DNA of 64,000 bases from Callorhinchus milii (Eukaryota): NCBI RefSeq assembly GCF_018977255.1, contig NW_024704742.1, forward strand, positions 84,880,001 to 84,944,000. The letters run 5' to 3'. The translations under genes were made by a program, and so were the position numbers. A model generated the notes under the pieces. The model worked only from the letters and a program-made list of their open reading frames with translations. It searched no databases and was not told where the DNA came from. Position 1 is the first letter of the stretch, and every line of letters starts with the position of its first letter. Below, piece after piece: positions 4,101-64,000 of this stretch.

Positions 4101-7100
4101 AATTCGGCAGCTGGTTTACCACAGGACCCAGAAAGAACTGCACAAAATAAGTCTTTCAAATTAAAATGGAAATCAAAATGGTTTCCAAATGTTTGCACCA
4201 TCATATATTTTTCGCCCACAAAATATACAGTCAATTCACTTTACAGTATATTCTGTGAAGCACTTTGAGATGTCTCGAAAGGCACTATATCAAATGCAAG
4301 GATTATTATTATTCTTTTTGGACAATGGCCTTAAACCTAAGAACATGAGAGATTTAGAGCCCCAACTCACTATTGCTTTTTCATTCATTATCTTTTCAGC
4401 GTGATTTAATACCAAATTCCGTGCAATCTTTTATGCACTAATACCTCGTGAGCATTAGTTGAGGACGAAGCCAGTAACAATCAACTACTACCGGACTGGA
4501 AAGTACTTCATCTTTGCCGCTATGTGAAAATAAATGGGCTAAATATAACAATTTACACTTATACAACACCTTTCACATCGGGAGGATATCGCACAGTGTG
4601 GGTTGGTAGACCGAGCTCTAGGAGAGTTGGGGGAGGGGGTGCACCGAGGGAAATAAATAGGTGTTGGGGTGGATTTGAAGACATGGAGGGAGGGGCAAGG
4701 TGGAGGGATGGCAATCCAGGGAGCAGGGCCAAAATTGTTGAAAGCGATAGTGGGACAGATGAGGCGAGGGAAAGGAAATTAGCAGGCTGATAAACTTAAC
4801 ACATAATTGTGTTATTCAATAATACAATTGGTGCAGAAGTCTTGGCACAATATTCCCGGGAACATCAGTCTAAGTCTGTTTCATACAGACAAAAATACAA
4901 CTTACCTTTACAAATCAGAGCAGCTCCTTCCCACCGTCCTGTGACTGAGCAGACTGATATGCTGTTTCCCCCCTCGTTTCGATACCCAGGTTTACAGTGA
5001 TACCGGATTTCACTCGTATGGGTCGTGTTTCTCACCAATGGCAGCCATGCATTTGGCACCTGAGCTGGAGGCCCACAGTCTATAACTGGAGTTAAGAAAG
5101 GAATTGGGGAAATGATTAATAATAATAATAATCCTTGCATTTGATATAGCGTCTTATCACATCGTTCAGACTTCTCAAAGCGCTTCACAGGATATATTGT
5201 AAAATGGATTAACCATGTATTTTATGTGTGAAACGCCGCAGCCAATGATGCACAGTAGATTGCACCCCTAGCAACCTTGTGCAAACCTTCACACGTACAT
5301 ACAACAGAAGCTTTTTGCAGGAATCTAATCTCACATCCCTGAATCCTCTTCAACAACAGAGCCCAATGTGGATAAATGGACAAGTGAATAATTGGTGTGC
5401 ATATAACTGGCATTCTACTGTATCTGAATCCTTTGGTAATATTTACTGACTGTTATCTTCTTCTGATCAACTTCGGATTGTCACATAACATGTGTTCAGT
5501 ATTTATGGTACAGCTGTGAATACCTTCAGTATCAAAGTGATCTACAGCAATTGCATGAAGCTGCCTTGACATCTGCAATGACACTTGCCATTCACTGTTA
5601 ATGTCACACAATGGCAGTTCCCAAATTAATCTAGATCTATTTCTTAACTGTTTTAAACCATACATATGTGAAACTATCTAATTTGATTTCAAGATTCAAA
5701 AGCATGGTGATGAATTTCCACATCTTTCAGACACACCGGATGACTAAAAACACAATCTCTTTCACCAACTCGAGAGTCTATCTAACGGATTACGTCAGTT
5801 AGATAAGTAATTACATCAGTGATTAGATCAGCGATTGTAGCTCAATGTGAACAGGTACCTAAAGCTAAACATGTCACAAACACATTCTAAAAAAGTTAAC
5901 ATTTTGCATTAAAAATAATCAAACAATATTAAAGATTGTGCATTAGAAACTAAATTAGAAACCTTTGCAAATCAATGTGATGTTTTCCCACTGCCCCTTC
6001 ACTGTGCATACAGAAATGTTCCTTCCTCCTGCACTGTAAAATCCTTCCATGCACTCATAGTAGACTTGGCTCCCGAGACTTGTGGTTTGGTTACGGATCA
6101 CGTTGGCATTCTGCACTCCCGGTGGCGGGCCGCAATCAAGTTCTACACAAAAACACAATATGGAATTAGATCAAACACTCTAAATACTCCAACACTCAAA
6201 AACTTGGTTCGAAGGGAGTTTGTCCCGGTGTCCTGGCCAACAATCCTGGCTAGATAAATGCATCAAAAAAAACACAAAATACTGCAGATGCTGGAAATCC
6301 GAAACAAAAACAGAGAGAGCTGGGAAAACTCAGCAGGTCAGGCAGCATCTAAGGAGAAAGGAAAGTGAGTGAACGTTTCGGGTCCATGACCCTTCATCAG
6401 AACGGTCGTGGTGAAGGGTTATGACGAAGGGTCGTGGACCCGAAATGTTGACTCATTTTCCTTTCTCCATAGATGCTGCCTGACCTGCTGAGTTTTCCCA
6501 GCTCTCTAGATAAATGTGTCATTTATTTCAACACTGTTTGTGAGACTGACATGCAGAATGACTACTATGTTCGCACAGATTCATCACACTTGACAATAAT
6601 TGCCTGTAATGTGCTTTGAAACCTTTGAGGTGATAAAGCACTATACAAACACAAGTTCTTGCTTGGTGGATACCTAAATACATAGTTATATCCTGTGTGA
6701 CCCCAATGGCCAATTAACATAATAATAAGAATTCTTGCATTTGATATAGTGCCTGTTCACGTCTTTGAGATGTCTCAAAGCACTTCACAGAATATACTGT
6801 AAGGTGAATTGACTGTATATTTGTGGGCGCAACACAGCAGCCAATTGCGCACAACAGTGTCCCACAAAGAGTCGTGGATTGAGTGACCAAATTATGAGTT
6901 TTTTTTAAGGGATTATTATCCATGGAAAACAATCCACTGATTGACCAGTAACCAGGTTACTATTTACTGCTAAATAAACAGAGGTGTGTAGAATAACAAA
7001 AGTTGCCTAGATTCCATGAGTGTCTTGTGGCACTTAAGAACGCAAGAACATAAGAACAGGGTGAAACGTTGGACAAGTTTCCTTACTACACATGCCTCTG

Positions 7101-10100
7101 TTTATCTAGCAGTAAGTAGGAATCTGCTTGTTAGTCGATCGCTGTATCGCTTTTCCAGGAGTAATAATTCCTACAAAAATAAATTTAAAATTAATTTGAT
7201 CACTCAATCTACGACTGTTTGTGCGACACTTCTGTGCGCAATTGGCTGCTGCATTTCGCCCACAAAATATTCAGTCAATTCACTTTACATTATATTCTGT
7301 GAAGCGCTTTGAGACGTCTCGGAGACGTGCTATAGCACTGCATCAAATGCAAGGATTATTATTATTATTATAACATGAGAATTTTCTAGGCGAAAGAAAA
7401 CCAAGTTTGCCTTCCAGCATCCTGGCAGTCGCTTGACATATCATGTCCCAAACTATATACTGTATCCCAAGATATTATTTTCTAGCAGAAATCTATCTAA
7501 TTTGTTCTTGAAACAAAAAACGCTTCCACTGTCTCTCAAGGGAGCCTGCTCTATAAGTTTACTACTCGTTCGCTGAAGTAGTGTTTCCACAGTTTTCCGC
7601 AGAAATAGGTCCAACTTCATGCAGCAGAAACCAACAATACCGAGCTCACCCTATAACACTGCGCCAATTGCACAAAATAGAAACTGCCCTCGATAATAAT
7701 ACAATGAAAACAATCTTTACAATTTGCCAAGTTTATTTGGCAAGCTGCCTTATGAAGCCAAAACATCTCAAGAGATTCAAAGAGAACTGCTTTTCCATTG
7801 AAGTGACTGTGCATCTTGTCGGGAAATGTGGAGCTTGGTAATGCTTGGAGTAATGAATGTGTGATGTTTTGCCAGGACAGCTGCAGTGTTCTGACTCAGT
7901 TTAATCTTCTGGAGAGTGGAGATGGCAATGCTGGAGAGGAGAGAATTGCATACTCTATCATTGAGATAACAACAACAAATTACATGAGTACAGTGCATTT
8001 CACATCAAGGGGGATATCCCGAGGCTCTGGACAGTCAGGGATTCACACCCGAGCTGGTGGAGCGAAGTATGTAAAGGTTTCAGCAGCAAGGAGGTTAGGT
8101 AAGTGTAGACAGGGGCTCAATGGGGGGGAGGGGTAAGCAAAGAAGAAAGTGGGCAATGATCCAGAGATGGAATTACCAATTGGGTTTGAACCTCGGCTCA
8201 AGGTCAAGAAGAACGGCAAGGGTGAGGATTAGAAAATAAAATCCAAGGACTAAATTCAGCCTCCACATGCACCAAACTGCTGATTGCTTACAGTGAAGGA
8301 CATGGTCACAGTGACTAGCGCACAACCATAGCCACCTGGACCTCTGTCTATCCGTAGGGCCGGAATCCACACCAAATTCTCATCCAAACACTTACACTGG
8401 GACAAATATGAGGGACTATGACAAAAAAATTGCAGCCCAAAAACAAGGGGATTGAGTATCAGTGACATTTAACATTGCTCATCTCTATTGATCTGCTGAG
8501 CATTTATTCAAAGTTCCCAAACTGCCCAATATGGAACTTGTTATCAGCTGTCGGTAGGTATCCTTCTGGTTATCAGACCAGCCATTGCATTGAGCCAATC
8601 CTTCCTGAATCGTATGATATCAAGAAAGAAAACGATGCTGGTGGTTGAACAGCCTATAACGTGAAGCTCTGCGCAAACAACTTTAACAATTATACACAAC
8701 TACAATAAATATCAGCAATTTACAGAGACCTCTGATCACATGGGGCCCAGCAATTCACAGTGCATTACTAGTGCAGTAGTAGTGGGCGCCATCTCGTGTT
8801 TCTACAAGAAATAACATGTACTTGTACCACTTAACAACCAATTCACTTCAGTAAAGCATAAAAAAACTAACAACCAGAAAAGGCCATTTATCCAACAAGC
8901 TCACTCCTTCTAAGACAGCGTATAACCAACCCTTCACTCCTCTTGCTATGGTGGGGAGGGCAGGGGTAGAGTTATCATGCACTGTCACCGGGTGTTGTGA
9001 ATATTTTCTATTCATCTTCGTGTACTCCTCTTTAACTTGCCTTTGATCATCCTCCTTCCCCCACCTACCCTCCACCCTCCCCGATCCTGACCCTCAGCTC
9101 GGGTCCGAAACACTGATTGTCCAGCGCCTTGGGACGTCGTCCTCCTGACCTGAAAGGCGCTATACAAATGTAATTGTGCTTTTGTGTTGTTGTCGCCTTT
9201 GGTCACTTTCCTCCCCCTCCCCCTGGCCCGGCCCTGGGATCTGCAACTGTGAAGCGCTCTGAGACGCCGTCCGGCGTGGAGGGCGCTTTATAAATCCAAG
9301 TTGTTGTTGTTATTGTAGCACGTTTATCATAGGAAATCTCATTTAAAGTATATCATGATAATTCTGGTGCCGCTGATAGAGCCCTGCACATCAACCCTCA
9401 TTGTCCTGTTTAAAGCAGGTTTAGAGACATCCTGGGACACAGACCTGTACACTGGAGACTCGCTCCTTCCCACTGTCCCCGGGCAGAGCAGATTGAGGTG
9501 TCGTTCCCACTGACAGCCACGTAGCCAATCTCACACCGGTACACAGCTGTATTGCCGTAGGTTGTGTTACCGAGCAGGTACCACCCTGTTTTTGGGACAG
9601 CCGGTGGTGAGCCACAGTCAACAGCTGAGGAGACACAAAGATATTGGTTTAGTCTATTTTTTGGTGTTTCTCCTAAACTTATAAACAAGATGTATCTCTC
9701 ATCCCTGACATGTTACACAATGAGATGTTTTTTCCGATGTAATGGAATTTCTGTGATTTCCAAGTTCAGTGAATGTGTCTGTAACTCCCGTTAACTGTGC
9801 TCTGATAACACCGCTTGATCATTAAATGATCATTTGTAACAAGAGCCACTAACAAATCACTGGAGCCATTCACAATAGGATTGGGCTCTGGGTGGAGATG
9901 TGGTATGTTATCTACAGCAGCAGAAGGCCACAGTCAAGTTCCAAACAGCATAGCCATGTCTGTCCTTCACAACACTGGAACAATGTGGCTGGGTGGGCGT
10001 GCAAGCCTGTGCAAGCCTTGTACCTGGAACACTATTGCAAGCATTTTAATACTGCATTCAACTCACCAGCTCTTCAACAGACAGCTCACATGCAACTATA

Positions 10101-13100
10101 ATAATCCATGCATTTGTTATAGCACCTTTCATGTCAGGCGGACGTCTCACAGGATGTACTGCAAGGTGTAGTGACTGTGTTTCGTAGGAAAATACCTATC
10201 ACCGAGAGGCTGAAATCTCTCGGTTGTCAAACAACAAATAACAAATTACATTTGTATAGCGCCTTTCACGTCGGAAGGACGTCCAAAGGCGTTTGACAGT
10301 CAAGGATTTGGACCCGAGCAGGGGGTTGGGATCAGGGAGTGGAGGGCAGGGAGGGTACAGGTAAGTGGGTGCCCGAAGGCACGGTCGAAGAGGAGGGTCT
10401 TGAGACGTGCCTTGAAGGAGGCAAGGGAGGCGAAGGGACTGTGGGATGAGGTTCCAAAGGGTGGGGGCAGAGAGCCTGAGGGACCGAGCCAATAGTGGGG
10501 CAGGCAGGGTGAGGGACATGGAGCAGGCCTGCTGAGCGGAGAGGGTGGACACGTTGATATGGAGCTGTACACTGGAGCTATACACTGCAGACAGTGTTGG
10601 AGGATAATAATTAGGAAAAAGCTTACAGTCTTGGGTGAAAGAGAGTTTCTGTTAATGGGCAATTGTCTACAGAAAAGCTAACATGACCGAGAGAACGATT
10701 AGCACGAGGGCAAAGCATAATAATAATAATAACGTTTGCATTTGGTATAGCGCCTTATCATGTCGGACAACAGCAATAACAAAATTACATTTGGTATAGT
10801 GCCTTATCATGTCAGACAACAACAACATCAAAATTACATTTGGTGCATTACATTTGTGCCTTATCACATCGGACATATTCTCAAAGCGCTCCATACGATT
10901 TTACTGTGAAATGAAATAATAATAATAATCCTCGCATTTGATATGGCGCTTTTCACGTCTTCTCGACGTCTCAAAGCGCTTTACAGAATAAACTGTAAAG
11001 TGAATTGACTGTATATTCGTGGGCGAAACGTGGCAGCCAATTGCACACAGCAGTGTCCCACAAACAGTCGTGGATTGCAAATGACCAATTTACTATTGTT
11101 TTGTTTTTGGAGGGATTATTATTAGGCGTGTGGAGTAAGAAAACTGGCCCATGGTTCCGTCCTGCCTGGAATTGAACCCAGATGTCTCGCTTGCAAGCCA
11201 AGTGCTCTAACCACTGAGCTACAGGACTCCACTTGACTGTATTTGTTGGAAAACACAGCAACACAATTGCACACAGCAATATCCCACAAAGGTTAGGGTT
11301 AGGAGTGAATGATCAATTTTATTTGGGGGCTTGTTGGCCAGGACACCAGAGGAAACTCCCTTCTCTTTTCGAATAGTGTCATGGGACCTTTAACATCCAC
11401 CTGAACAGGCAGACGGGACCTCAGTTTAACGTCTCACCTGAACGACAGCACCTCTGACAATTCAACACACCCAGCACTGCATTGGGCTGTCAGCTTATGT
11501 GAGTTCAAGTCACGACTAAAAGGCGAAAGTGCTATCACTGAGCCAAGCTGACACTAGCATGCACAAGAGCAAGACGTGTGCCAATAGCTTGGGGGCTGTG
11601 CCGATTGTTCGGGTGGGTCGCAGGCTTACCAGTGAGTTCCTCTGGGACCTTATCAGTATTTCCATCAGATCCCAGTTCCTGTACACAGGAAATCAAGCTT
11701 CATTTAGACTTGCTTGCGTACTTCAGTGACAGGGAAGCTGAACTTACTGCTCAACATGATGTTGCTGTGCTTCTCTTTTGTAAAGTCTAAAAGGACAGTG
11801 AGTGGCTCTGCAAGGTAAGAAGACTCCCTAATTTGTCACAAAATCTAATATTTATGCTGCCATAACTGGTTCCAAATACAGAACCAGAACCAGTTATACG
11901 AGTGATTTTTACATCTCGGCTGAGTATGTAGATTAACACACCTTCAACCTTCAGGCTGGCAAGGAATAACCACACAAAGTGCTGTATGTTTTTTAACACA
12001 GGAACACAGGAAAAGGAATAGGCCATTCAGCCCCTCAAACCTGTTCCGCCTTCAATTAGATCATGACTGATCTGTACGTCAACTCCAAATAACACGTACA
12101 AGTACAGGTAAGGATCCTTGGATGTGAACCTTTTCAATGTATTCCATGCCTGTCCATATACTCCAGAACGGGACTGAATTTCAGACACCATTTCATTAGC
12201 AATATAGAGATGACTGAGGATTGTACCAATTGACCCTACCTGGATGATCTCCATTCTACTGATTTGGCAGAATTTGGCAAAATATACTCGTAGCAAGAGA
12301 TGTGTAATGGTTTGACTGCTGGGGAACATCACACATTGTCCAGTTTAAAGCATATGTAAGAAATATTCTGGTGCACAGACCTGTACACTGGAGACTCGCT
12401 CCTTTCCACTGTCCCCGGGCAGAGCAGACTGAGGTGTCGTTCCCACTGACAGCCATGTAGCCAATCTCACACTTGTACACAGCTGTACTGCCGTAGGTTG
12501 TGTTACCGGTATGGTACCGCTTTGTGTTTGGGATAGCCGGTGGTGAGCCACAGTCAACTTCTGAGGAGACACATAGACATTGTTTTACATTAACATTCTG
12601 TGGGTTTCTAAACTGTGGTTCACATTACATGTGTTATAATAGGATCCTTACAATATAACAGATTCAGACGCTAATCCTTCAATATAAAGAGTAGATCTGT
12701 TCAATAATGTCATTTTTTTAAATCAGCCGGGTATCTGACATTTTTGAAACCCCATCACCTTGCTTCAGACTATCCAAAACAAACTGAGAATTTTATGCAT
12801 CCCACCTACACATGTAATAATTCAATGAGATCTGTACAGTGTGCAAGTCTCAGCACAGGATTTCCCTCAAGCCAATGGCAATGACCCACAGATAGACTGA
12901 GATATTAATATAAGAGATATATAGGGATCTGGCACATGAGAAAGAAAATCAGAAAGAAAAAGTCGCCACCAGAGAACATCACATATTGCCCTGTTTAAAG
13001 CAGGTTAGAGACATCCTGAGACACAGACCTGTACACTGTAGACTTGCTCCTTCCCACTGTCCCCGGGCAGAGCAGACTGAGGTGTCGTTCCCATTGGTAT

Positions 13101-16100
13101 CCACATAGCCAATCTCACACCTGTACACAGCTGTACTGCCGTAGGTTGTGTTACTGAGCAGATTCCACACTGTGTTTGAGATAGCCGCTGGTGAGCCACA
13201 GTCAACTTCTGAGGGACACAAAGACATTGATTTACTTTATTTTTCTTTCGAAAGATAAACTTAAAAATAGAAATTATGGCTCCACACCCTGTGTGGTATA
13301 ATAGGGATCTTCCCATTAAAATGCCATCTTTCTATTTTAATAATAATAATAACCCTTGCATTTGATAGAGCGCCTTATCACGTAGTTGAGATGTCTCAAA
13401 GCCCTTCGCAGAATATATTGTAATGTGGATTGTGTATTTTGTGGGTGAAATGTGACAGCCAAGTGTGCACAGCAGTGTCTCACAAACAGTCGTGGACTGA
13501 GAGACCAAATTTTTTTAAATGATTAATACCGACGGAAAGCACTCCACCAATCGACTAACAACCGGGTTCCTACTTACTGCTAGGTAAACAGAGGCGTGTG
13601 GAGTAAGGAAACTTTTCTAAGATTTCGCCCCATCCGGGAATCAAACCATGGTCCTCTCGCTTGCGAATACTCTAACCTCTACACTGCGGGACTTCACATA
13701 GTCCCATAGAACACGTCTCAAGAACATGACACCAAGTTTTCCAGGAGAAAATAATTATTTTTACTCTTAAAGATGCCATCCTGTACATCCTGAGACATAG
13801 ACCTGTACACTGCAGGCTCGCTCCTTCCCACTGTCCCCGGGCAGAGCAGACTGAGGTGTCGTTCCCACTGACAGCCACGTAGCCAATCTCACATATGTAC
13901 ACAGCTGTACCTCCGTATCTTGTGTTACCCAATAAGTACCACCCTATGTTTGGGACAGCCGGTGGTGAGCCACAGTTAACCTCTGAGGTTGGTTTTGTGT
14001 ATATCCCACTGCCATTAAACCTACCATCAAATACCCAGATAACAACAACAACTTGCACTTATATATAGCTCCCTCCAACCAGGGTAGTGTCTCAGTGGCG
14101 GAGCCTGACTTCAAACCAGGGGGAGTGGGTAGAGGTGGCTGTAAGCATGGTCAAAGAGGAAGGTTTTCAGGCGGGACTTGACAAAAGAGAGAGAGGGGGC
14201 AAGGCGGAGGGATTGAGGGAGAGAGTTCCAGAGTTTGAGGGCGTAGTGGCTGAAAGTGCGAACTCCGATGGTGGGGTGGAGGGAGTATCTTCTCTCGCAC
14301 CTTCCGCTCACTTCATGGCTGTTTGTGGGACATTGCTGTCCACAAATTTGCTGTCATGTTCAACCACAAATACAGTGATGACATTTTACAATAAATCTTG
14401 TGAAGTACTTTGAGACATTTCAATAATGCTCTATATCAAATACAAGGATTATTATATTTGATAACTGGCATTCTGTATATATCATACGTATTAAAACTTA
14501 TGCAGTGAAACACTATTATCAGTAGTAAGTTGTTTCTGAGTAGCTTGTTTTTCCATAAGTTGCAAAGGAATCTCAAGGCCACATCTCAGTGGGTGTGAAG
14601 AGTGTCCTCGGTGGTAAATTGAAAGAAGTCTCTGATAAGAGAAGCTGCTTCAAGCTTCACAGACATAGCAAGGGACAGGCTATTTTGTCTGAAAGCAGCA
14701 ATAAATGAAATGAAAATAACTTTAAGCAACAGGTTCTCAATATGTACCCGCCATAATCGTTCGTCAAAGAGTAGCTGAAGTCACACCTGAGTATTGGTGT
14801 TAAAAAGTCTTAGAAAAGATGGAATTTGAATAGGAAAATAACTGAGCTGCTCTGAACTTCATCCATCATTGAGCAACAGTTAAGAGCTTCACTCTAATAA
14901 ACTGCAAATGTTTATGTCTCAAACAAGACCTATAGAATTTGTTATGTATTTTAACAAAATATCTCTTTTCTGTCCAAATCATATTACTTCCAAATTATTG
15001 ACAGAGTCAGAGAATTGCATGAAATGTAGACCCAAATGTTTGTCAGAAGCTTTGAGACTCTCTTTAAGTGAAGACCACCATATAGGTGCAAGTTATTGTT
15101 GTTTACCCTCAGTATGTTCCAACTTGCTTATACACTACAGGTAAATAGTAGATTTGTTTAAGATTGTAATTTCACTTATAAAAGTATCTGCGAAATATGT
15201 GAGTCTCATCACAGGATTTCCCTCAGGTCCATGCTACACAGTTGGACTGAAACGCTAATACAGTGGTTATGCAGAGATTCACCTTCAAACAAAACACACA
15301 GTCATAACACATAACATTGTATCCTGTGAAGTCCTTTGAGACGTCCTCTCGATGTGAAAGGCTTATTGTTTATTATTGTTATTTGGCACATGTGAAAGAA
15401 AATCAGAAATAAAAAGTCGCCATTGAGGAACATAACACATTCTCCTATTTGTGGGCTTTAGAAATAATCAGGGACACAGACCTGTACACTGCAGACTCAT
15501 TCCTTCCCACTGTCCCCGGGCAGAGCAGACCGATGTGTCGTTCCCACTGACAGCCATGTAGCCAATCTCACACTTGTACACAGCTGTACTGCCGTAGGTT
15601 GTGTTACCGGTATGGTACCGCGTTGTGTTTGGGATAGCCGGTGGTGAACCACAGTCAACTTCTGAGGAGACACATAGACATTGGTTTACATTAACATTCT
15701 GTGGGTTTCTAAACTGTGGTTCACATTACGTGTGTTATAATAAGATCCTCACAAGATACTACTCCTTCAATAATAGTAGTTTTGTTCTGGAATAACCATA
15801 GCCACCTGGACCTCTGTCTATCCGTAGGGCCGGAATCCACACCAAATTCCCATCCAAACACTTACACTGGGACAAATATGAGGGACTATGACAAGAAAAT
15901 TGCAGCCCAAAAACAAGGGGATTGAGTATCAGTGACATTTAACATTGCTCATCTCTATTGATCTGCTGAGCATTTATTCAAAGTTCCCAAACTGCCCAAT
16001 ATGGAACTTGTTATCAGCTGTCGGTAGGTATCCTTCTGGTTATCAGACCAGCCATTGCATTGAGCCAATCCTTCCTGAGTCGTATGATATCAAGAAAGAA

Positions 16101-19100
16101 AACGATGCTGGTGTTTGAACAGCCTATAACGTGAAGCTCTGCGCAAACAACTTTAACAATTATACACAACTACAATAAATATCAGCAATTTACAGAGACC
16201 TCTGATCACATGGGGCCCAGCAATTCACAGTGCATTACTAGTGCAGTAGTAGTGGGCGCCATCTAATGTTTCTACAAGAAATAACATGTACTTGTACCAC
16301 TTAACAACCAATTCACTTCAGTAAAGCATAAAAAAACTAACAACCAGAAAAGGCCATTTATCCAACAAGCTCACTCCTTCTAAGACAGCGTATAACCAAC
16401 CCTTCACTCCTCTTGCTATGGTGGGGAGGGCAGGGGTAGAGTTATCATGCACTGTCACCGGGTGTTGTGAATATTTTCTATTCATCTTCGTGTACTCCTC
16501 TTTAACTTGCCTTTGATCATCCTCCTTCCCCCACCTACCCTCCACCCTCCCCGATCCTGACCCCCAGCTCGGGTCCGAAACACTGATTGTCCAGCGCCTT
16601 GGGACGTCGTCCTCCTGACCTGAAAGGCGCTATACAAATGTAATTGTGCTTTTGTGTTGTTGTCGCCTTTGGTCACTTTCCTCCCCTGGCCCGGCCCTGG
16701 GATCCGTTACTGTGAAGCGCTCTGAGACGCCGTCCGGCGTGGAGGGCGCTTTATAAATCCAAGTTGTTGTTGTTATTGTAGCACGTTTATCATAGGAAAT
16801 CTCATTTAAAGTATATCATGATAATTCTGGTGCCGCTGATAGAGCCCTGCACATCAACCCTCATTGTCCTGTTTAAAGCAGGTTTAGAGGCATCCTGGGA
16901 CACAGACCTGTACACTGGAGACTCGCTCCTTCCCACTGTCCCCGGGCAGAGCAGATTGAGGTGTCGTTCCCACTGACAGCCACGGAGCCAATCTCACACC
17001 GGTACACAGCTGTATTGCCGTAGGTTGTGTTACCGAGCAGGTACCACCCTGTTTTTGGGACAGCCGGTGGTGAGCCACAGTCAACAGCTGAGGAGACACA
17101 AAGATATTGGTTTAGTCTATTTTTGGTGTTTCTCCTAAACTTATAAACAAGATGTATCGCTCATCCCTGACACGTTACACAATGAGATGTTTTTTCCGAT
17201 GTAATGGAATTTCTGTGATTTCCAAGTTCAGTGAATGTGTCTGTAACTCCCGTTAACTGTGCTCTGATAACACCGCTTGATCATTAAATGATCATTTGTA
17301 ACAAGAGCCACTAACAAATCACTGGAGCCATTCACAATAGGATTGGGCTCTGGGTGGAGATGTGGTATGTTATCTACAGCAGCAGAAGGCCACAGTCAAG
17401 TTCCAAACAGCATAGCCATGTCTGTCCTTCACAACACTGGAACAATGTGGCTGGGTGGGCGTGCAAGCCTGTGCAAGCCTTGTACCTGGAACACTATTGC
17501 AAGCATTTTAATACTGCATTCAACTCACCAGCTCTTCAACAGACAGCTCACATGCAACTATAATAATCCATGCATTTGTTATAGCACCTTTCATGTCAGG
17601 CGGACGTCTCACAGGATGTACTGCAAGGTGTAGTGACTGTGTTTCGTAGGAAAATACCTACCACCGAGAGGCTGAAATCTCTCGGTTGTCAAACAACAAC
17701 AAACAACAAATTACATTTGTATAGCGCCTTTCACGTCGGAAGGACGTCCAAAGGCGTTTGACAGTCAAGGATTTGGACCCGAGCAGGGGGTTGGGATCAG
17801 GGAGTGGAGGGCAGGGAGGGTACAGGTAAGTGGGTGCCCGAAGGCACGGTCGAAGAGGAGGGTCTTGAGACGTGCCTTGAAGGAGGCAAGGGAGGCGAAG
17901 GGACTGTGGGATGGGGTTCCAAAGGGTCAGAGCAGAGAGGCTGAGGGCCCGAGCCAATAGTGGGGCAGGCAGGGTGAGGGACATGGAGCAGGCCTGCTGA
18001 GCAGAGAGGGTGGACACGTTGATATGGAGCTGTACATTGGAGCTATACACTGCAGACAGTGTTGGAGGATAATAATTAGGAAAAAGCTTACAGTCTTGGG
18101 TGAAAGAGAGTTTCTGTTAATGGGCAATTGTCTACAGAAAAGCTAACATGGACTAGGTGCCGATTGAAGCCGCTCAAATAGGGGAACTTGTCGAAATGTG
18201 CAGCTAAATGTGGATTGGGGAGCTGTCTCTGATACTGAATGCAACACTACAGTAGGTAGAGGCTGGGAATATGTGTACACATGTTGGTGGGGTACAATTT
18301 GATTGCTCAGTCACCAGAACTCTTGTCTCTGGGTCAGAAGGTTCAAGCCCCATGTCAGGACCTGAGATGATAGTCTCGACTTGCTGCTCCCCTATCCGTC
18401 TACAAAAATGTCAGTGCACGTGACAGCATTTATTGTGAAACGTTTGAGATGTTTAAATACTGAAGTGCTTCATGTAAGTGCCACTTTTACAGCAGAAACC
18501 GTGTGCTGAAATCTAGTTCCAAGAAATGACACAACAGGGCGGGTTTAGGTTACATTTAGTAATTGTCATAACCTTCTGCACATTGCAGGACTTTCTGACC
18601 GAGAGAACGATTAGCACGAGGGCAAAGGATAATAATAATAATAACGTTTGTATTTAGTATAGCGCCTTATCATGTCGGACAACAACAATAACAAAATTAC
18701 ATTTGGTATAGTGCCTTATCACATCGGATATATTCTCAAAGCGCTCCACACGATTTTACTGTGAAATGAAATAATAATAATAATCCTTGCATTTGATATA
18801 GTGCTTTTCACGTCTTCTCGACGTCTCAAAGCGCTTTACAGAATAAACTGTAAAGTGAATTGACTGTATATTTGTGTGCGAAACGCGGCAGCCAATTGCA
18901 CACAGCAGTGTCCCACAAATAGTCGTGGATTGCAAATGACCAATTTACTATTGTCTTGTTTTTGGAGGGATTATTATTAAGCGTGTGGAGTAAGGAAACT
19001 GGCGCAAGGTTTCGTCCTGCCTGGAATTGAACCCAGGTGTCTCGCTTGCAAGCCAAGTGCTCTAACCACTGAACTACAGGACTCCACTTGACTGTATTTG

Positions 19101-22100
19101 TTGGAAAACACAGCAACACAATTGCACACAGCAATATCCCACAAAGGTTAGGGTTAGGAGTGAATGATCAATTTTATTTGGGGGCTTGTTGGCCAGGACA
19201 CCAGAGGAAACTCCCTTCTCTTTTCGAATAGTGTCATGGGACCTTTAACATCCACCTGAACAGGTAGACGGGACCTCAGTTTAACGTCTCACCTGAACGA
19301 CAGCACCTCTGACAATTCAACACACCCAGCACTGCATTGGGCTGTCAGCTTATGTGAGTTCAAGTCACGACTAAAAGGCGAAAGTGCTATCACTAAGCCA
19401 AGCTGACACTAGCATGCACAAGAGCAAGACGTGTGCCAATAGATTGGGGGCTGTGCCGATTGTTCGGGTGGGTCGCAGGCTTACCAGTGAGTTCCTCTGG
19501 GACCTTATCAGTATTTCCATCAGATCCCAGTTCCTGTACACAGGAAATCAAGCTTCATTTAGACTTGCTTGCGTACTTCAGTGACAGGGAAGCTGAACTT
19601 ACTGCTCAACATGATGTTGCTGTGCTTCTCTTATGTAAAGTCTAAAAGGACAGTGAGTGGCTCTGCAAGGTAAGAAGACTCCCTAATTTGTCACAAAATC
19701 TAATATTTATGCTGCCATAACTGGTTCCAAATACAGAACCAGAACCAGTTATACGAGTGATTTTTACATCTCGGCTGAGTATGTAGATTAACACACCTTC
19801 AACCTTCAGGCTGGCAAGGGATAACCACCCAAAGTGCTGTATGTTTTTTAACACAGGAACATAGGAAAAGGAATAGGCCATTCAGCCCCTCAAACCTGTT
19901 CCGCCTTCAATTAGATCATGGCTGATTTGTACGTCAACTCCAAATAACACGTACAAGTACAGGTAAGGATCCTTGGATGTGAACCTTTTCAATGTATTCC
20001 ATGCCTGTCCATATACTCCAGAACGGGACTGAATTTCAGACACCATTTCATTAGCAATATAGAGATGACTGAGGATTGTACCAATTGACCCTACCTGGAT
20101 GATCTCCATTCTACTGATTTGGCAGAATTTGGCAAAATATACTCGTAGCAAGAGATGTGTAATGGTTTGACTGCTGGGGAACATCACACATTGTCCAGTT
20201 TAAAGCATATGTAAGAAATATTCTGGTGCACAGACCTGTACACTGGAGACTCGCTCCTTTCCACTGTCCCCGGGCAGAGCAGACTGAGGTGTCGTTCCCA
20301 CTGACAGCCATGTAGCCAATCTCACACTTGTACACAGCTGTACTGCCGTAGGTTGTGTTACCGGTATGGTACCGCTTTGTGTTTGGGATAGCCGGTGGTG
20401 AGCCACAGTCAACTTCTGAGGAGACACATAGACATTGTTTTACATTAACATTCTGTGGGTTTCTAAACTGTGGTTCACATTACATGTGTTATAATAGGAT
20501 CCTTACAATATAACAGATTCAGACGCTAATCCTTCAATATAAAGAGTAGATCTGTTCAATAATGTCATTTTTTTTAATCAGCCGGGTATCTGACATTTTT
20601 GAAACCCCATCACCTTGCTTCAGACTATCCAAAACAAACTGAGAATTTTATGCATCCCACCTACACCCCATTTCACATGTAATAATTCAATGAGATCTGT
20701 ACAGTGTGCAAGTCTCAGCACAGGATTTCCCTCAAGCCAATGGCAATGACCCACAGATAGACTGAGATATTAATATAAGAGATATATAGGGATCTGGCAC
20801 ATGAGAAAGAAAATCAGAAAGAAAAAGTCGCCACCAGAGAACATCACATATTGCCTTGTTTAAAGCAGGTTAGAGACATCCTGAGACACAGACCTGTACA
20901 CTGTAGACTTGCTCCTTCCCACTGTCCCCGGGCAGAGCAGACTGAGGTGTCGTTCCCACTGACAGCCATGTAGCCAATCTCACACCTGTACACAGCTGTA
21001 CTGCCGTAGGTTGTGTTACCGGTATGGTACCGCTTTGTGTTTGGGATAGCCGGTGGTGAGCCACAGTCAACTTCTGAGGAGACATATAGACAATGGTTTA
21101 CATTAACATTCTGTGGGTTTCTAAACTGTGGTTCACAATACGTGTGTTATAATAGGATCCTCACAAGATACTACTACTTCAATAAAAGTAGTAGATTTGT
21201 TCTGGAATGTCATTTTGTTTGGTCAGCCGGGTGTCTGACACATGCAAAAACACATCACCTTGATTCAAAGTATCACAAAGACAAAGTTTAGATTATTTGC
21301 CCCTAAATTTCAAAGCATTTCACAAAATATACCATAAAGTGGAGTGACTGTGTACCTTGTATATCAAATGCAAGGATTATTATTATTATTATTGTGAGTG
21401 AACGCATCACTAAGACCATGCAAATTTTATGCCTCAGATTAGTCTTCACTGTGTATCAGAGCAAAATATTATATACTGTGCAATACAATGACTGTCCCAT
21501 ATCATCTAACGCCCCTCCCTCAGCTCCATGCTGTTACCACCTGACAGATTTTCCTCAGCTGGTTCCTCTTGAATAACCTAGATGGTACTGAATAACCTAA
21601 ATGGTACCTTGAGCTGGCTCCACTGGCTCCCCATCCCTCAGAGGATAGAATTCAAAATACTCGTCCTCACTTTCAAGGCCCTCCATGGCCTTGCCCCCTC
21701 CTGCATCTCTGATCTGCTGACCCCCTGTCAACCTGTCCATGCCTCTGTTCAGCAGCTCCAGCCTGCTCTATGAATCCGCTCAGCTGCCACTGCCCTTCCA
21801 ATTTCCAACCCCTCCTACCTGCCCCCCTCACACTTCGACCACAACCCATCCCTCCTTCCATACCTTTGAACTTGTCACTCCCTCCTCTTTCACCACTATC
21901 GTATCCTCCATGAAGCTCACCACCTGTTCCCTGGACCCCATCCCCACCCCTCTCCTTAAATCCCAGCTACACCTCCTTGCCCCACTACTCGCCGACATCA
22001 TCAATCTCTCCCTGTCATCTGGCACTGTTCCTTCCCCCCTCAAAGCAGCCATTACCACCTCCACCTTGAAGAAACCTTCCCTTGACCCATCACTGCTATC

Positions 22101-25100
22101 CAGCTACCGGCCTATCTCCCACCTCCCTTTTCTGTCTAAGGTCCTTGAGAAAGCCGTCGCCTTCCAGCTTCGCTCTTTCCTCTCCTCCCACTCCCTCCAC
22201 GAGCCCCTCCAATTGGGTTTCTATGTTGCCCACAGAGTACACGAGCAAGGTCACAAATGACATCCTGCTCATGTGTGACCAGGGCTCCCTCTGCCTCCTT
22301 GTCCTCCTCGACCTCTCTGCTGCCTTTGATACTGTGGACTATTCAATCCTCCTCCACCACCTCTCCTCCCACCGACTGCCTGTCCGACGTCAAGTCCTGG
22401 ACGAGGGACAACTTTCTCCAACGTTAGCAAGACCGAGGCCCTCCTGATTGGATCGCGCCAGTGCCTCCACACCTCGGGCGCTGGCAGCATCAGCCTCCAC
22501 GGCTGCACACTCAACCTCACTAAGCCAGTCAGGAATCTGGATATCTTGTTTGACCCTGAACTGTCCTTTCTTCCCCACATCCGCGTCATGACCGGCACTG
22601 CCTACCACCACCTCCGCAACACTGCCAGACTCCGCACTGCCTCACCCCTCAGGCTGCCGAAAGCCTCACCCACGCATTCATCACATCAAGGCTTGATTAC
22701 GGAAACTCCCTCCTCATCGGCCTTCCCAACTCTTCCCTTCACAAGCGGCAGATCATCCAAAACTCTGCAGCTCATGTACTCTCGCGCACCAGGCTCCGTG
22801 ACCCCATCACTCCCACCCTCACCCGACTCCACTGGCTCCCCATCCCCCAGAGGATCGAATTCAAGATCCTCGTCCTCATCTTTAAGGCCATCCATGGCCT
22901 TGCCCCCCCCTACCTCTCTGATCTACTGACTCCCTACGAACCTACCAATGTAATTTTGTTGCTGTTGTGTAGATGGTACCAACATGTAACACAGATATAA
23001 TAGAGTCATGTACACACCGAACATACAATTGCTGAGTTTAAACTTACGTCTTATTACTGGCACTCAAACAGAAAGTTGATACAAGTAACAGAAATTCAGA
23101 ATGCAAAGTCATTGTTGGGACACATTACACATTGAGATCAAACGCTTTGTTACAGGAATGGCCTGCAATGAGTCTCGAGTTACAAATGTCAACTCCTTCC
23201 AGTAATCAGAAGCACCCTGCTGAACCGCTGGAACTGCGCTCCGGAGGTAGAAGGTGGTGGGAGCAAAGTTCCGGTACTCCCATTTGTCCCACAGTTGTTA
23301 TTAAAGAAACCTATTGGAAATTGTTGTGTTTTAGTCGCCTATATCCAGTTCGAGTTGGCTTTAGTGACACAGACCTGTACACTGAAGGTTCGCTCCTTCC
23401 CACTGCCCCCGGGCAGAGCAGATTGATGTGACTTCTCCTTTGAAGAGCACATAGCCATCTTTACATCTGTACACAGCTTTACTCCCATAAACCGTGTCAT
23501 GTTGCGGGTACCACTCCGTATTTGGAACACCTGGTGGGGATCCACAGTCAACAGCTGAGGAGACACAACACCATTAAAGTTTCTAAATGGAATTACAATA
23601 GTAAATACAGAAGAACAACAGCTTGCACTTATATATATATAGCGCTCTTCACATGGGGCAGGGCCTTGGAGCATTTAACCGTCTGGCACTAGTACGGTCA
23701 AAGAGGAAGGTCTTCAGTCATGATCTAAAAGAGGGGGCAAGGTGGGGGCATTGGGGGAGAGAGTTCCAGAGCTTTGTGGTGTAATGGCTGAAAGAACAAC
23801 ACTTTCAGAGACCGCAAGGCAGCAGAACAATATTATATATTAAAAAAATATAATTAGGTTCCAGGTTGTGAATGCAATTTCACTACAGACATAGCGAAGT
23901 ATTTTGTTACACCCACAAGAGTGATCTTGCTTAGAATTATGGAAAATTATTCAATTCGGTCTATATTTGGAAGCCGGTTTCTTTTACAGAAAAAATGTCA
24001 CCTCCAAATTAAGACTGAAATTCAGAGTTTTCCACAATTCATTCAAATTCTTAGATTTGAAAGTAAAATTGGCCTGACAGGTTGATTTTTGTGCACTGTG
24101 CCAAAAAGTCAGAGATGTAAAATTGAGTTTAGAGATTTTAGAGAGTGATGGAGAAACACCTGGAGAGTAAACATATTAATGGATATGGTGGGAAAGCAGG
24201 AGATGGGATAAGATGTTTGTATGTGAGCCATGAATTAGACTGTGCATAGTGGGTTCAATGAATGGAAATAGCCTTCTCTTGTTCCTAATTTCCTATTATT
24301 ACTGACTGAGCCATCCAAAGAGCTATTCAGTCTCCCTTATCAAAAANGAGTCTGCCCCTCCCAAAAATAATGAGATTAGCTTTACCTCACACCACTGACA
24401 CACAAACATTAACATTAAGAGTTGTCCAGGATTGAGATGAGCAACAGAAAATCAGAACATCACACATTGTTTTGTTAAAAGCTGGTTTAGAAACATCCTG
24501 AGACACAGACCTTTACACTGGAGACTCGCTCCTTCCCACTGTCCCCGGGCAGAGCAGACCGATGTGTCGTTCCCACTGACAGCCCCGTAGCCAATCTCAC
24601 ATCTGTACACAGCTGTACTGCCGTAGGTTGTGTTATCCGGCAGGTGCCAACCTGTGTTCTGTATATTCGGTGGTAAGCCACAGTCAACAGCTGAGGAGAC
24701 ACAGACAATTTTTAATTTTTTTATAAAAACGGGCTATGCTGTTCTTTAATAATAACAATAATCAAAATAGGCTAAAGTTGCATAATTTATAAGTTTTGAC
24801 CCAACTTTTTGTCCACGGAAGAGAAAATAATCCAACAAGTTGTGTGGCCTTTACCAAAATTGAAAATGAGAGATAACAACAGTTGCAGGTGAACCTTTAC
24901 CCAATACTGACACACAGAGACATCCCCAGACACACTACCAGCTTCAGGCTTTTATTAATCTATCCATCACGTGAAAGACATTCTAGTTAAAACGGTGATC
25001 AGGAGGGCATACAGCTAAGAGGCTGCGTATGTTAATATACAATAATAATAATTCTTGCATTTGATATAGAGCCTTATCACATCTTTGAGAAGTCTCAAAG

Positions 25101-28100
25101 TCCTTCACAGAATATACTGTAAAGTGGATTGACTATATTTTGTGGGCAAAATCTTTCTCCAATAAGATCCAGTGAAATGAAGTCCCATATCATAGCAGTG
25201 TGAAAAAGTCCCATGGCTCCATAAATGGTCACAAGGAAGTTATTAGTTGACTTCATGGCTGACTTTAGCAGGTGAACTATTTGTGTATAAATAGAGGAAG
25301 CACATACATGCAAACGTCTAAGTGGTAACACAGCTGTGGACTCGAGCAACATCCTCCAAATTTCTCATTGTACAGGACGTCATCTGAACTCCTTGATGTG
25401 TCACTGACTCGGAAATTGCTCCCAGCTATGCATAAACTTATATTTACACATTACAGAATTTTATACATCAAAAAAGTTTTTCCTCAGGGTCAAAGTGAAT
25501 TGTGGAAACAGGATACTTCACATAAGGCACACTTTACTGAGTCACAAGAGTGATTTCCTAATATCATTGCTCAAAAGAATATCCTGTTTTGCCTTACTTA
25601 AGCGTATCAGAACGGACACATGTGAGCGAAGGAAAAAGAGAAAGGTCCACAAAGGAAATAGGCTGATTGCACAGCCAGCGTATCTGCGCAAACCATCAAT
25701 GGAGATCAGAGTACAAACCAATCTGACAACTAATCAATAGGCACTTTAATAACCAGGCGGAAGAATATAACACAATCTGCTCCAAAGATAAAATAATTGC
25801 TGTCCCAAAAAGACCCGAATTCCCACCTCGCCCCTCCTCAAAATATACACACATAAGTTTTATTCACCACTATCGGCAGTCGGGCCTGCAGCTTCTCTGC
25901 CCCCACCCTTTGGAACTCCATTCCCTTCGCCTTGCTTCCTCCCTTGTCTCCTTCAAGGCCAATTTCAAGAACCTCCTCTGCAACCACGCCTTCGGTCACC
26001 CTCCTACCCAGACCCTCCTTGCCTTCCACGCCTCCTGATCCCAAACCCCAGCTCGGGTTCCAAATCCGTCATTGTCCAGAACCTTGGGACATCCTCCCAA
26101 TGTGAAAGACGCAATGAAAATGTAATTTGTTGTTGTTGAATTCATAGAATCATACAGCACATAAGGAGGCCAATCGGCCCATCGTGTCTGTGTCGGCTCT
26201 TTGAAAAGAGCTATCCAAATCAATCCCACTCCCCCGCGCTCACCCCATAGCCCTGCAAACTTGTCCTCCCCAAATTATAATCTAATTAATCTAAGTATTC
26301 ACTGGTGCTCACAGCAACTAAATAAAAGGGAGGAGATGGATGCTGAATTTTCCCTGTAACTGCAAATAAATCACCCACCAGGCAGGGAGAACTCACTCTA
26401 ATGGCTACTGCTAACTCTGGACTTCAGGGATCGACTTGGTTTCATTTTCCTCAATTCAAATGTTAAAGGTTGTCCATTAATGATTTTCTCCTGGATTAGG
26501 ATGATCCCCATTGTTAGTGGATTAAGAAAGTAAACCTAGAAAATACTTTCAGGGCTGCCAGGCAGCAGCACAAAAGGGTATAGGTTCAATGTACATTTGT
26601 TAACAAAATAAAGTATAGCCTGGCTATTAATAATAATAATAGTGATCATAATAAGTCTGAGAAGCACATCTCTCATGTGAGCTTGCCTGCCCTCTGTGGG
26701 GAATGGGTCCCAGACTGGAAACAATACTATTATTGTGCAAATGAATTTCACGCATCTGTTTGGGCCATTCTCTTTCAGGTGATGGGCTGGTATATCTCAC
26801 TTAATGCACATGAACATTAGTATTTTTTTGTCTCAGATTTCAAGGCAAATTTCAAGTTCATATTTCACCCAACCAGCTAAGATTTCCACTTTTGACAAAA
26901 TTGATAAAATAGTGAAATGCTAATAATAATCCTTCTATTTGATATGTTGCCTTATCGTGTTATCAAAACATCTCAAAGTGCTTTACAGGATTTTATTGTG
27001 AAGTAATGACTGTTTATTTGTAGGCAAACACGGCAGCCAATTTGCACGCAGCAATGTCCCACAAACAGCCCTGAAGTGAGTGACCAATTTTACTTTGGGG
27101 GATTGTTGTTCAGGACATCAGGAGTAACTCCTTTCTCTTTTTGAATAGTGCCATGGGATCTCTCAGTTTAACATCTCATCAGAAGGATGGCACCTCTGAC
27201 AATGGAACACACCCCCAGCACTTCATTACAGCCTGGACTCTATGGGTTCAAAAACCCGCCATAGGGATTGAATCCATTACCTTTTGACTGAGAGGCTGAC
27301 ACACATAACTTGGTTACCCAAATTTTCCTCTGGTAACTGCACTGCTCACTACTGGACTTGACACTATCTTCTACAAAGCAAAGAGAAGCAAAACTTCATA
27401 CAATGAAAGTAATCAGAGATCAGTATACATACTTATGCAGTGACTTCCGTCATTGGGAGTGAAGGACGACATATTATTGGATGGTCTATAACCTGTACTA
27501 CATGTACAATAAAAGCTGCCATGTGTATTGTAACAAGCCGCATGGTATCCACAGACCAAGCGACCGGCTTTAATCTGGCATTCGTTTTTATCTGTGAATT
27601 GAACACACAAAACACACACAAACACATTAATGAACAATTTTCACAGCATAATAATAATCCTTGCATTTGATATAGCACATTGAGACGTCTCAAAGCGTTA
27701 CACAGAATATATTGTAAATATGCTTCAAACATCCAGATAACAAGGACCGATCTCAATCATAGGCTGTCTATACACTCGGCTGCATGTCTAGCTCCTTGCT
27801 GACAGATGTATAGAAAGTTCATTATACCTCTGAGTGGATTCCAAGAATTCCAAGACCAGAAGCTCTTTGAAGGTGGTCCAAGTGATATTGTAAGAATGAA
27901 TCAAACGCAGTTAATGTTCAACATTTGATCCCTTAAATCACATTAGTCGTAAACTAAGTGATCACCTACCTACATGAAGCCAACATTGGTTCCACTGAGC
28001 ATTGGGACTTCTGGCTGGGCAGGGCAGCTGGCTGTATATTGAAAGTTCAGTTATTTTACAGGCCAAATGTTCCTTGGTGTTTATGGTGCACATTTGGATG

Positions 28101-62572: not shown

Positions 62573-64000
62573 CTGTGGAGAGAACAACGTTTTAGTTACA
62601 GAACAATATTTATCACAAGAAATTGACTGGATTTGAGGTTTGGAAGCAGAAAACTACAGACATTTATTAAAGAAAAACCTTATACACCTCAATATGCCCA
62701 ACCTGAAGAACACTTCATGTTTATGGTGGCACAATTTTATTGAATAAAATGAATGAACAATTTTTATTTGGATGATTGTTGAGTAATAATAATAAATAAT
62801 AATCCTTGCATTTGATATAGCGCTTTTCACGTCAGGAGGACGTCCCAAAGCGCTTCACAGAACACACTGTAAAGTGAATTGACTGTATATTTGTGGGCGA
62901 ACTACAGGAGAAACTCCCTTCTCTTTTCAAGAGATCTTTAACTGGCAGTCGGGACCTCAATTTAACTTTAATCTAAGGCGGCACCCCCGACAATGAAATG
63001 CACTCCAAGCATTGCATTGGCATGTCAACCCACATGGGGCTTGAATCCCAAAGTGCTTCACTGCAAAGTGCATTTACATGTGTGCATGTGTAGTGTCAGT
63101 ATATTTGCACCTGAGCATAGAGAAGTGGATGTGGAACAGAGCACAGTAGAGAGCTGATTATCAGCACTAATTTAGACTGACCTCTTTGTAGATAAAGTGA
63201 ATATGGTTGGAAATCTGTAAAATGCTAAAAATGCTTCCTGTGCCCCTCTTACTCTAACCATATAAATATATTTAACACATTTGTGCTATCAGTGGAAAAT
63301 CCACTTTTTATGGTTAGCTGGGTGTCTTGACATGTGGAAACCAACCACCATGCTTAAAAAGAGCATTCGAACCAGACAGAGTTCCACTTATATGTGCCAC
63401 CTACACAGAAAATTTCTTGTCAAGAATGTACTGCGCACTCTCTCCTTGAAGGGATGCTTCCTGCTTGCCTAATGATGGAGAGCATTTAGGGGCAGTTTGG
63501 CAGGAGCCAAGATGTGGGAATTCCAGAATGCAATGTGGGAAGAATGCCTATCCCCAGTGGCTGGTCTCCTTTCCACACGAGCCAAACTGGTTGGTCCATG
63601 ATCAGCATGCCTGGAGCACTGGGGACTATTGAATGCGCCACAGAGAGTTGAATAAATTCCAGGATTCTGTTACCAAACACATCACCTTGGAACCTGCTCA
63701 GTTCTAAGGGGATCCTTCCTCCCTCCACTCAAGGAGAATAGTCACTAGGAGGTTAAATGAGGTTGTGCACACGTTTGTAGCAGGCGCTTAAGAGCTTTTT
63801 TAGCACGAATAGATTGCATCTTTATCAACTGCAAGGCCGTAACTTCACACATCAGGAAACTTTTGTAACAGCATTGTAGTCAGAGCCTGATGCGGATAAA
63901 CGTATGTACAGATAACCAGCAATCTAATGTAATAGATTTGTAAAAGAATGATCAAATCACTTCCTAACAAAATCAATACCACATCATTTTTTTTAATTAC

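Follow-up and report, generated by a model that had tools for sequence, protein, structure and literature searches.

A homogenised array of complement control protein exons in chimaera SUSD1 and the narrow patch in which its repeats differ

How can the exons of a tandem array exchange sequence with one another and still differ in one short part of the domain that they encode? This question is raised by a stretch of 64,000 nucleotides from the chimaera Callorhinchus milii (RefSeq assembly GCF_018977255.1, contig NW_024704742.1, positions 84,880,001 to 84,944,000; "the window" denotes this whole stretch, and all coordinates given below are positions in it). On its minus strand, within 9445-24690, lie ten exons of 180 nucleotides with phase 1-1, each encoding one complement control protein (CCP, or sushi) module of 57 amino acids; they are designated S1 to S10 in coding order, and residues and codons are numbered from the Asp preceding the first Cys. 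A preliminary description had assigned the variation among the repeats to diversifying selection on the N-terminal half of the module and the uniformity of the C-terminal half to gene conversion. The feature is real but narrower than first described. We regard it as an even question whether selection keeps the types of one small patch diverse within an otherwise homogenised array, that is, whether this is a divergence peak under gene conversion.

Judged by sequence, the gene is SUSD1, which encodes a cell-surface protein of the chimaera, and the ten array exons are genuine CCP repeats. All eight exons submitted to Pfam, out of 13 CCP exons, passed the gathering score of the Sushi family (PF00084) with 34-46 bits against a threshold of 20.7, and Cys2, Cys29, Cys44, Cys57, and Trp50 are invariant in all 13. 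A profile search yielded 171 hits from 5907 candidates; most of the 120 listed are named SUSD1, and those ranked highest, called SUSD1 or SVEP1-like, bear PF23144. The order typical of SUSD1, with EGF-like exons followed by a CCP array and PF23144, was found. The RefSeq SUSD1 model P0121 aligns to exons of the window at 92-100%, and S1 and S2 are contained exactly in two C. milii database entries. The repeats and peptides of the preliminary description were recovered where it had placed them, except that the variable segment of S1 follows DCGLP rather than DCGSP, and its recurring N-glycosylation sequons were confirmed at Asn18 in eight and at Asn39 in nine of the ten repeats.

Among the nine distinct exons, the amino-acid difference between pairs averages 0.30 in the N-terminal half and 0.14 in the C-terminal half (permutation p = 0.005; p = 0.028 once the four Cys, the Trp, and two Gly residues are removed). 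The claim that variation is concentrated in the N-terminal half thus holds, yet it is too coarse: 32-40% of all non-synonymous differences fall in only six codons, 12-17, whereas conservation within the exon is highest in codons 18-32, and a second variable patch, codons 33-37, belongs to the C-terminal half. In 11 exon pairs, the proportions of non-synonymous and synonymous differences (pN/pS) are 0.14/0.11 for codons 0-11, 0.51/0.285 for codons 12-17, 0.03/0.06 for codons 18-32, 0.24/0.09 for codons 33-37, and 0.04/0.135 for codons 38-58, as compared to a divergence of 0.24 in the first 48 nucleotides of the 3′ intron and of 0.47 between unrelated DNA; since these pairs, which are not mutually independent, were picked for differing patches, the values for codons 12-17 are inflated. 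Many of the replacements are radical, as had been noted: 79% of the 29 residue pairs at codons 12-17 have a negative BLOSUM62 score, compared to 45% of the 31 outside both patches. An AlphaFold model of P0028 (predicted local distance difference test score 89) has strands at residues 11-14, 24-29, 33-37, 41-44, 50-51, and 56-59 and a loop at 15-19. According to this model, codons 12-17 encode the last part of strand 2 and the first part of the hypervariable loop, in line with the N-terminal loop invoked previously, whereas the second patch is a predicted strand of the C-terminal half. The passages available from PMC2151080 and PMC2276370 describe a hypervariable loop as general to CCPs, or present in almost all sushi domains.

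The exchange of sequence that a divergence peak under gene conversion presupposes was found. The pairwise homoplasy index test gave p = 0.002-0.012 on the exons (23 informative sites). S3 and S8 have their 3′ end and the following intron in common while the 5′ part of S8 is its own; S3, S4, and S6 have in common the 5′ half and about 130 nucleotides of 5′ intron, while their three 3′ introns are 22-26% apart, and their pS is 0-0.06 in the 5′ half versus 0.17 in codons 38-58. Over 21 pairs, the two halves have the same silent divergence (pS 0.101 in the N-terminal and 0.096 in the C-terminal half), as compared to 0.24-0.27 in the adjacent 3′ intron, and none of 18 codon-model likelihood tests detected different silent rates between the halves (p = 0.16-0.85). 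The lower silent divergence of the exon relative to the intron fits conversion of the entire exon, and these comparisons support recombination that homogenises both halves. Conversion confined to the C-terminal half is rejected in view of the equal silent divergence and of the 5′ half shared by S3, S4, and S6.

The uniform C-terminal end, which had been taken for the product of such conversion, can be accounted for differently. The ratio of non-synonymous to synonymous rates (omega) is 0.16-0.31 for codons 42-57 and 0.9-2.7 for codons 4-20 (p ≤ 0.002), and by these ratios the invariant end is attributable to purifying selection on the fold, common to sharks and rays, and not to conversion. At the DNA level, the 21-nucleotide stretch described as almost invariant does not stand out significantly, with one silent allele against an expectation of 3.6 (P = 0.13). 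The original combination of diversifying selection across the N-terminal half with conversion of the C-terminal half alone is largely refuted and retains only a slight chance of being correct. It can appeal to the greater protein variation of the N-terminal half, to the acquisition of the S8 3′ end from S3, and to omega values of 1.3-2.7 for codons 4-20 in the seven youngest exons; it conflicts with the equal silent divergence of the halves, with the homogenisation of S3, S4, and S6 in the 5′ half and not in codons 38-58, with the conservation of the C-terminal motif across sharks and rays, and with omega values for the N-terminal half (0.75-1.23) that significantly exceed 1 in none of six fits.

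What remains of diversifying selection concerns the six codons. For codons 4-20 as a whole, omega is 1.21 in nine exons (95% range about 0.8-2) and 1.67 in seven (0.8-3); as a simulated omega of 2 was detected in 23 of 25 and 16 of 25 cases, respectively, strong selection over all of these codons is unlikely. For codons 12-17, a window chosen post hoc, omega is 2.1-4.5 when a silent rate shared with the rest of the exon is assumed. The concentration of differences there exceeds the expectation under model M1a, with correction for all six-codon windows, in all four exon sets (P ≤ 0.01), and that of a wholly neutral exon in all three sets at the fitted silent rate (scan-corrected P ≤ 0.004). In addition, six site sets defined beforehand from shark variation or from the structural model gave omega estimates above 1 in 48 of 48 cases (1.26-2.56, shared silent rate). 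An origin of the island in CpG decay was not supported, CpG-type changes making up three of the 19-24 non-synonymous alleles in codons 4-20 (S2 excluded).

These results can be placed in the following scheme. Unequal crossing-over and gene conversion would make the symmetric one-domain exon array of SUSD1 grow and turn over, and the array was renewed after the separation of chimaeras and sharks. Exchanges would be resolved within the exons, the one long stretch of homology that most copies share, and would level silent sites in both halves; the mosaicism is visible in the exons, and conversion is its probable cause. Purifying selection holds codons 18-32 and the strands at the C-terminus with Cys44, Trp50, and Cys57, which explains the invariant protein end. 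The 18-nucleotide island of codons 12-17 is more diverged than the rest, most likely because selection retains several patch types and removes conversions that overwrite the patch, with linked silent changes building up beside the protected sites; codons 33-37 would be a weaker second patch of this kind. A narrow divergence peak arising from selection against overwriting under gene conversion is described for opsins in a passage of PMC3924837, and a short island within homogenised sequence, rich in replacement as well as silent differences, is the pattern expected of such selection. The protein could then be pictured as a glycosylated rod of like-shaped domains that offers a few different small binding patches to an extracellular partner, which might be a host ligand or a microbe, and the six-residue patch may serve in binding and owe its diversity to selection.

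The alternative is neutral tolerance, to which we assign a substantial probability, although one short of even. It accepts array renewal, exchange, and purifying selection and holds that codons 12-17 and 33-37 are merely free to change, differences being piled up by clustered mutations and by conversion tracts that end at mismatches, so that the array would be a length-variable glycosylated stalk. Several observations weigh for it and against selected patches. With their own silent rate, codons 12-17 have an omega of 0.87-1.64 (p ≥ 0.52), close to 1, since the local silent rate is two to four times that of the rest of the exon; this silent excess is itself significant in only one of four sets (p = 0.032, range 0.03-0.36) and leans on S7, whose Leu15 and Leu16 codons (13930-13935) read TTA TTG where S5, S8, and S10 have CTG CTC; these four silent changes within six bases suggest mutation clusters or old age. 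Site-wise tests of the kind proposed in the preliminary description were run as M1a/M2a, M7/M8, and M8a/M8 in our own implementation, with S9 dropped as identical to S4 and the tree shape fixed in M7, M8, M8a, and the fits on reduced exon sets. They were mostly negative, with p = 0.71, 0.47, and 0.20 for nine exons, 0.95 and 0.38 without S2, and 0.24 and 0.045 for the seven youngest exons (site 12 flagged), i.e., six of seven were non-significant, and the M1a fit places about half of the codons at omega = 1. For the site sets defined beforehand, p was below 0.05 in two of 48 tests and in none of 48 when they were given their own silent rate, and a neutral exon at the upper-bound silent rate yields the concentration at codons 12-17 with P = 0.04-0.06. 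All these selection tests and null models assume a single tree, an assumption violated by recombination, and constraint on silent sites could explain part of the difference between exon and intron divergence. Moreover, the site profile of the window correlates with generic CCP variability (rho 0.49), and a hypervariable loop is described for nearly every sushi domain (PMC2151080, in the part available). Patch types are also freely repeated within the array, one in four modules (S3, S4, S6, and S9) and GWYLLG in three, so modules need not differ, and rays and catsharks have runs of identical modules. Neutral tolerance is in turn opposed by the pN at codons 12-17 (0.51), which is about twice the intron divergence (0.24) and stands amid homogenised codons on either side, by the rejection of the neutral scan at the fitted silent rate, and by the failure of CpG-type changes to account for the island. 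Taken together, positive selection on the six-codon patch is plausible but unproven from these codon comparisons.

Comparison with other species extends the pattern. From the 120 listed hits, 14 shark and ray proteins were compared, with three isoform duplicates and two chimaera entries excluded; a second chimaera sequence was found neither among these 120 nor in a search of short proteins (31-100 amino acids), in which none of three candidates passed as a homologue. The shark and ray proteins have 8-16 CCPs, a lungfish 12, and a sturgeon 11, and the chimaera lineage is therefore not alone in having a long array. Each of the nine distinct window modules has its nearest neighbour within the window (9/9), the best cross-species identity being 65-73%. 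In a quick tree based on only 57 columns, a branch with a Shimodaira-Hasegawa-like approximate likelihood ratio test (SH-aLRT) value of 95 separates them, together with four long-branch rows, from 127 of the 128 array modules of sharks and rays. The lack of one-to-one partners between chimaera and shark modules indicates that renewal of the array followed the separation of the two lineages. Within sharks, a cross-species group of modules at the fourth or fifth CCP (P0003, P0004, P0006, P0007, and P0019; SH-aLRT 88) suggests that some array positions escape turnover.

Codons 42-57 are quieter than codons 7-17 in 13 of the 14 arrays from sharks and rays, with a consensus that is almost the same, and the window site profile correlates with theirs (rho 0.65). 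When shark orthologues were matched collinearly and aligned locally, residues 7-17 evolved faster than the tail in seven of seven pairs (1.2- to 7-fold), with residues 30-41 about as fast as 7-17. An initial comparison, based on reciprocal best hits and a global alignment of the tails, had shown residues 7-17 to be slower than the tail behind the CCPs in three of four usable pairs; it was discarded, as best hits are biased towards conserved modules and dissimilar isoform ends were among the tails. The faster change of both stretches in this protein comparison is allowed by selection on the patch as well as by neutral tolerance.

The array contains one recent duplication of about 5 kb, its newest event, with copy A at 8324-13093 (3′ end of S8, S9, S10, and introns) and copy B at 15794-20958 (3′ end of S3, S4, S5, and introns), owing to which the ten repeats amount to about six independent types. 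The copies differ by 1.27% intron substitutions, S4 and S9 are identical, and S5 and S10 differ by one base; this is the only exonic change in the duplicate, where 5.3 are expected (P = 0.031), and the exons are therefore under selection as coding sequence. A 447-nucleotide segment at 18150-18595 is present in copy B only.

There is a very slight chance that assembly produced this part of the array as an artefact by placing two haplotypes in tandem, S8-S10 and S3-S5 being alleles. The low intron divergence between the copies would suit it, as would the 11 of 13 listed single-contig differences on copy B that carry the letter of copy A, and the older model P0121, which lacks five array modules and has one repeat that joins the N-terminal part of S3 with the 33-37 patch of S8. 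Against it, the depth of single contigs in the public run X1 is about 9-13 in the duplicate versus 3-8 in most single-copy contigs, and in X4 about 20-22 versus 8-13 (with some duplicate contigs at only 11-14); this roughly doubled depth in two runs hints that the duplicate is real. The public-run sequences are contigs dominated by interspersed repeats, and the differences considered are 40 of 222. Furthermore, both X1 and X4 cover the S6-S7 stretch that separates the copies, an X5 contig spans 15794 without differences, and the order of S4-type, S10-type, and S9-type modules in P0024 needs two copies. The island result is in any case independent of the duplicate. S3 and S8 are identical over 49 bases in codons 18-32 (13106-13154 and 20971-21019), and the hybrid in P0121 is possibly either a short allele produced by crossover in these bases or a collapsed assembly or gene model. 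At 16985, S5 has Ser at the otherwise conserved Tyr33, whereas contigs of X1, X4, and X6 show the Tyr base and P0024 has Tyr; for the Ser, a private variant and an error are both conceivable, and the Tyr contigs may stem from the S10 copy.

The individual exons, all of them on the minus strand, are as follows. S1 (24511-24690) carries the patch GWHLPD at 24635-24652, and S2 (23375-23554), the most diverged array exon, EWYPQH at 23499-23516. The intron between S2 and S3 contains at 21700-22950 a broken element, highly repeated in public runs, that resembles a long interspersed nuclear element, with pieces of an open reading frame which we take to be of the reverse-transcriptase type. S3 (20894-21073) has KRYHTG at 21018-21035 and has its 3′ end and downstream intron in common with S8, while S4 (20236-20415) has its 5′ half and 5′ intron in common with S3 and S6. 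S5 (16908-17087) is a copy of S10 except for the base at 16985, and S6 (15482-15661), with the patch TRYHTG, is a near-copy of S3. S7 (13803-13982) has GWYLLG, encoded with the silent changes in its two Leu codons mentioned above. S8 (13029-13208) is a mosaic with its own 5′ part and S3-type sequence from 13093 into the intron, its differences from S3 bunching at 13155-13188 and 13094-13105. S9 (12381-12560) is identical to S4, and S10 (9445-9624) has GWYLLG at 9569-9586.

The splice donor is GTCTGT in nine of the ten array exons and GTCTAT in S7 (3′ borders, e.g., 9439-9444 and 24505-24510). Three older CCP exons follow that are not part of the homogenised array, S11 (5967-6137), S12 (4910-5080), and S13 (3589-3759), with donors GTTTCT (about 5957-5962), GTAAGT, and GTAACC, respectively. 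The donors of the array exons and of S11 depart from the consensus, and with symmetric 180-nucleotide exons, in-frame skipping would be possible. Predicted shark isoforms in databases skip modules, and no exon-exon joint occurs among the 15 listed of more than 10,000 joints from public-run contigs. One X6 contig begins exactly at the S5 acceptor (17087) with 30 other letters, one below the bridging threshold. A far-reaching proposal, which we consider unlikely, is that SUSD1 of cartilaginous fishes is a diversified recognition receptor: selection would maintain several six-residue binding patches, crossovers in the conserved part of the exon would reshuffle patches and module number between individuals, and the weak GTCTGT donors on symmetric exons would permit in-frame skipping and hence many isoforms facing a fast-changing microbial ligand.

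The remaining SUSD1 exons, likewise on the minus strand, begin with the first coding exon at 32640-32735, a 100% tblastn match to residues 1-32 of P0121 that resembles a signal peptide by eye. Two EGF-like exons follow, one at 29004-29147 (matching P0121; EGF_3 is weak and under the cut-off) and one at 27428-27595 (residues 77-132 of P0121). Further SUSD1 exons lie beyond S13 (nearest about 2746), and a hydrophobic stretch was recognised by eye at the C-terminus of P0121. Exons encoding RRM domains are located upstream of SUSD1 on the same strand at 50120-50434 and 62375-62653; presumably they belong to a PTBP-like gene. The gene order PTBP3-SUSD1-UGCG is stated in a passage of 10.1101/2020.08.30.274191, and the upstream RRM exons are in keeping with it.

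SUSD1 proteins are already annotated in databases, and the evolutionary pattern described here is of a known kind. According to annotations, SUSD1 of sharks, rays, and bony fishes has EGF exons, a CCP array, PF23144, and a hydrophobic C-terminus as in the chimaera, and shark and ray SUSD1 has the same variable stretches (7-17 and 30-41), quiet C-terminal end, and sequons; the chimaera modules nevertheless form their own group, with KRYHTG, GWYLLG, and VWNLLS not being consensus patch types of sharks. The closest precedent is exon 5 of the genes for red and green opsin in humans, for which the part of PMC3924837 at hand describes paralogues homogenised by conversion and a narrow peak that includes silent sites; RHD/RHCE, a further case of a divergence peak, enters here by the title of a reference in that paper. 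In SUSD1, the paralogues are exons of one gene, the peak is 18 nucleotides long, introns have diverged further than exons, contrary to the opsins, and the modules are not known to differ in function. The zinc-finger array of PRDM9 also consists of intragenic tandem domains with concerted evolution and few variable positions, but it lies in a single exon and is under strong positive selection at the sites known to contact DNA, whereas each SUSD1 module is one exon and the site tests are weak. The Dscam exon arrays, as presented in the available part of PMC3236188, share tandemly duplicated exons, candidate variable epitopes, and undemonstrated positive selection among paralogues, yet are mutually exclusive and lack gene conversion, whereas the SUSD1 exons recombine and are annotated as consecutive. 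The regulators of complement activation (CR1, factor H, CD55, and CD46) have the CCP fold and gave the best structural and profile hits; with about 20-25% identity and different architecture and locus, the likeness is one of fold alone. A description of the SUSD1 array or its evolution was not found in the open-licence literature, where gene lists in supplements could escape such a search.

In the literature passages that treat SUSD1, no ligand is established. A link to coagulation factors is given as a belief in a passage of PMC11959081, which also mentions a transmembrane domain, whereas a passage of PMC9083331 denies such a domain and notes expression in brain. If the island is neutral, the array would represent ordinary concerted evolution of a CCP stalk. 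If it is selected, the six residues of each module together with residues 33-37 would be a candidate binding surface for which natural patch swaps exist, and SUSD1 would provide an intragenic divergence peak under gene conversion at the level of single exons, repeated across sharks and rays.

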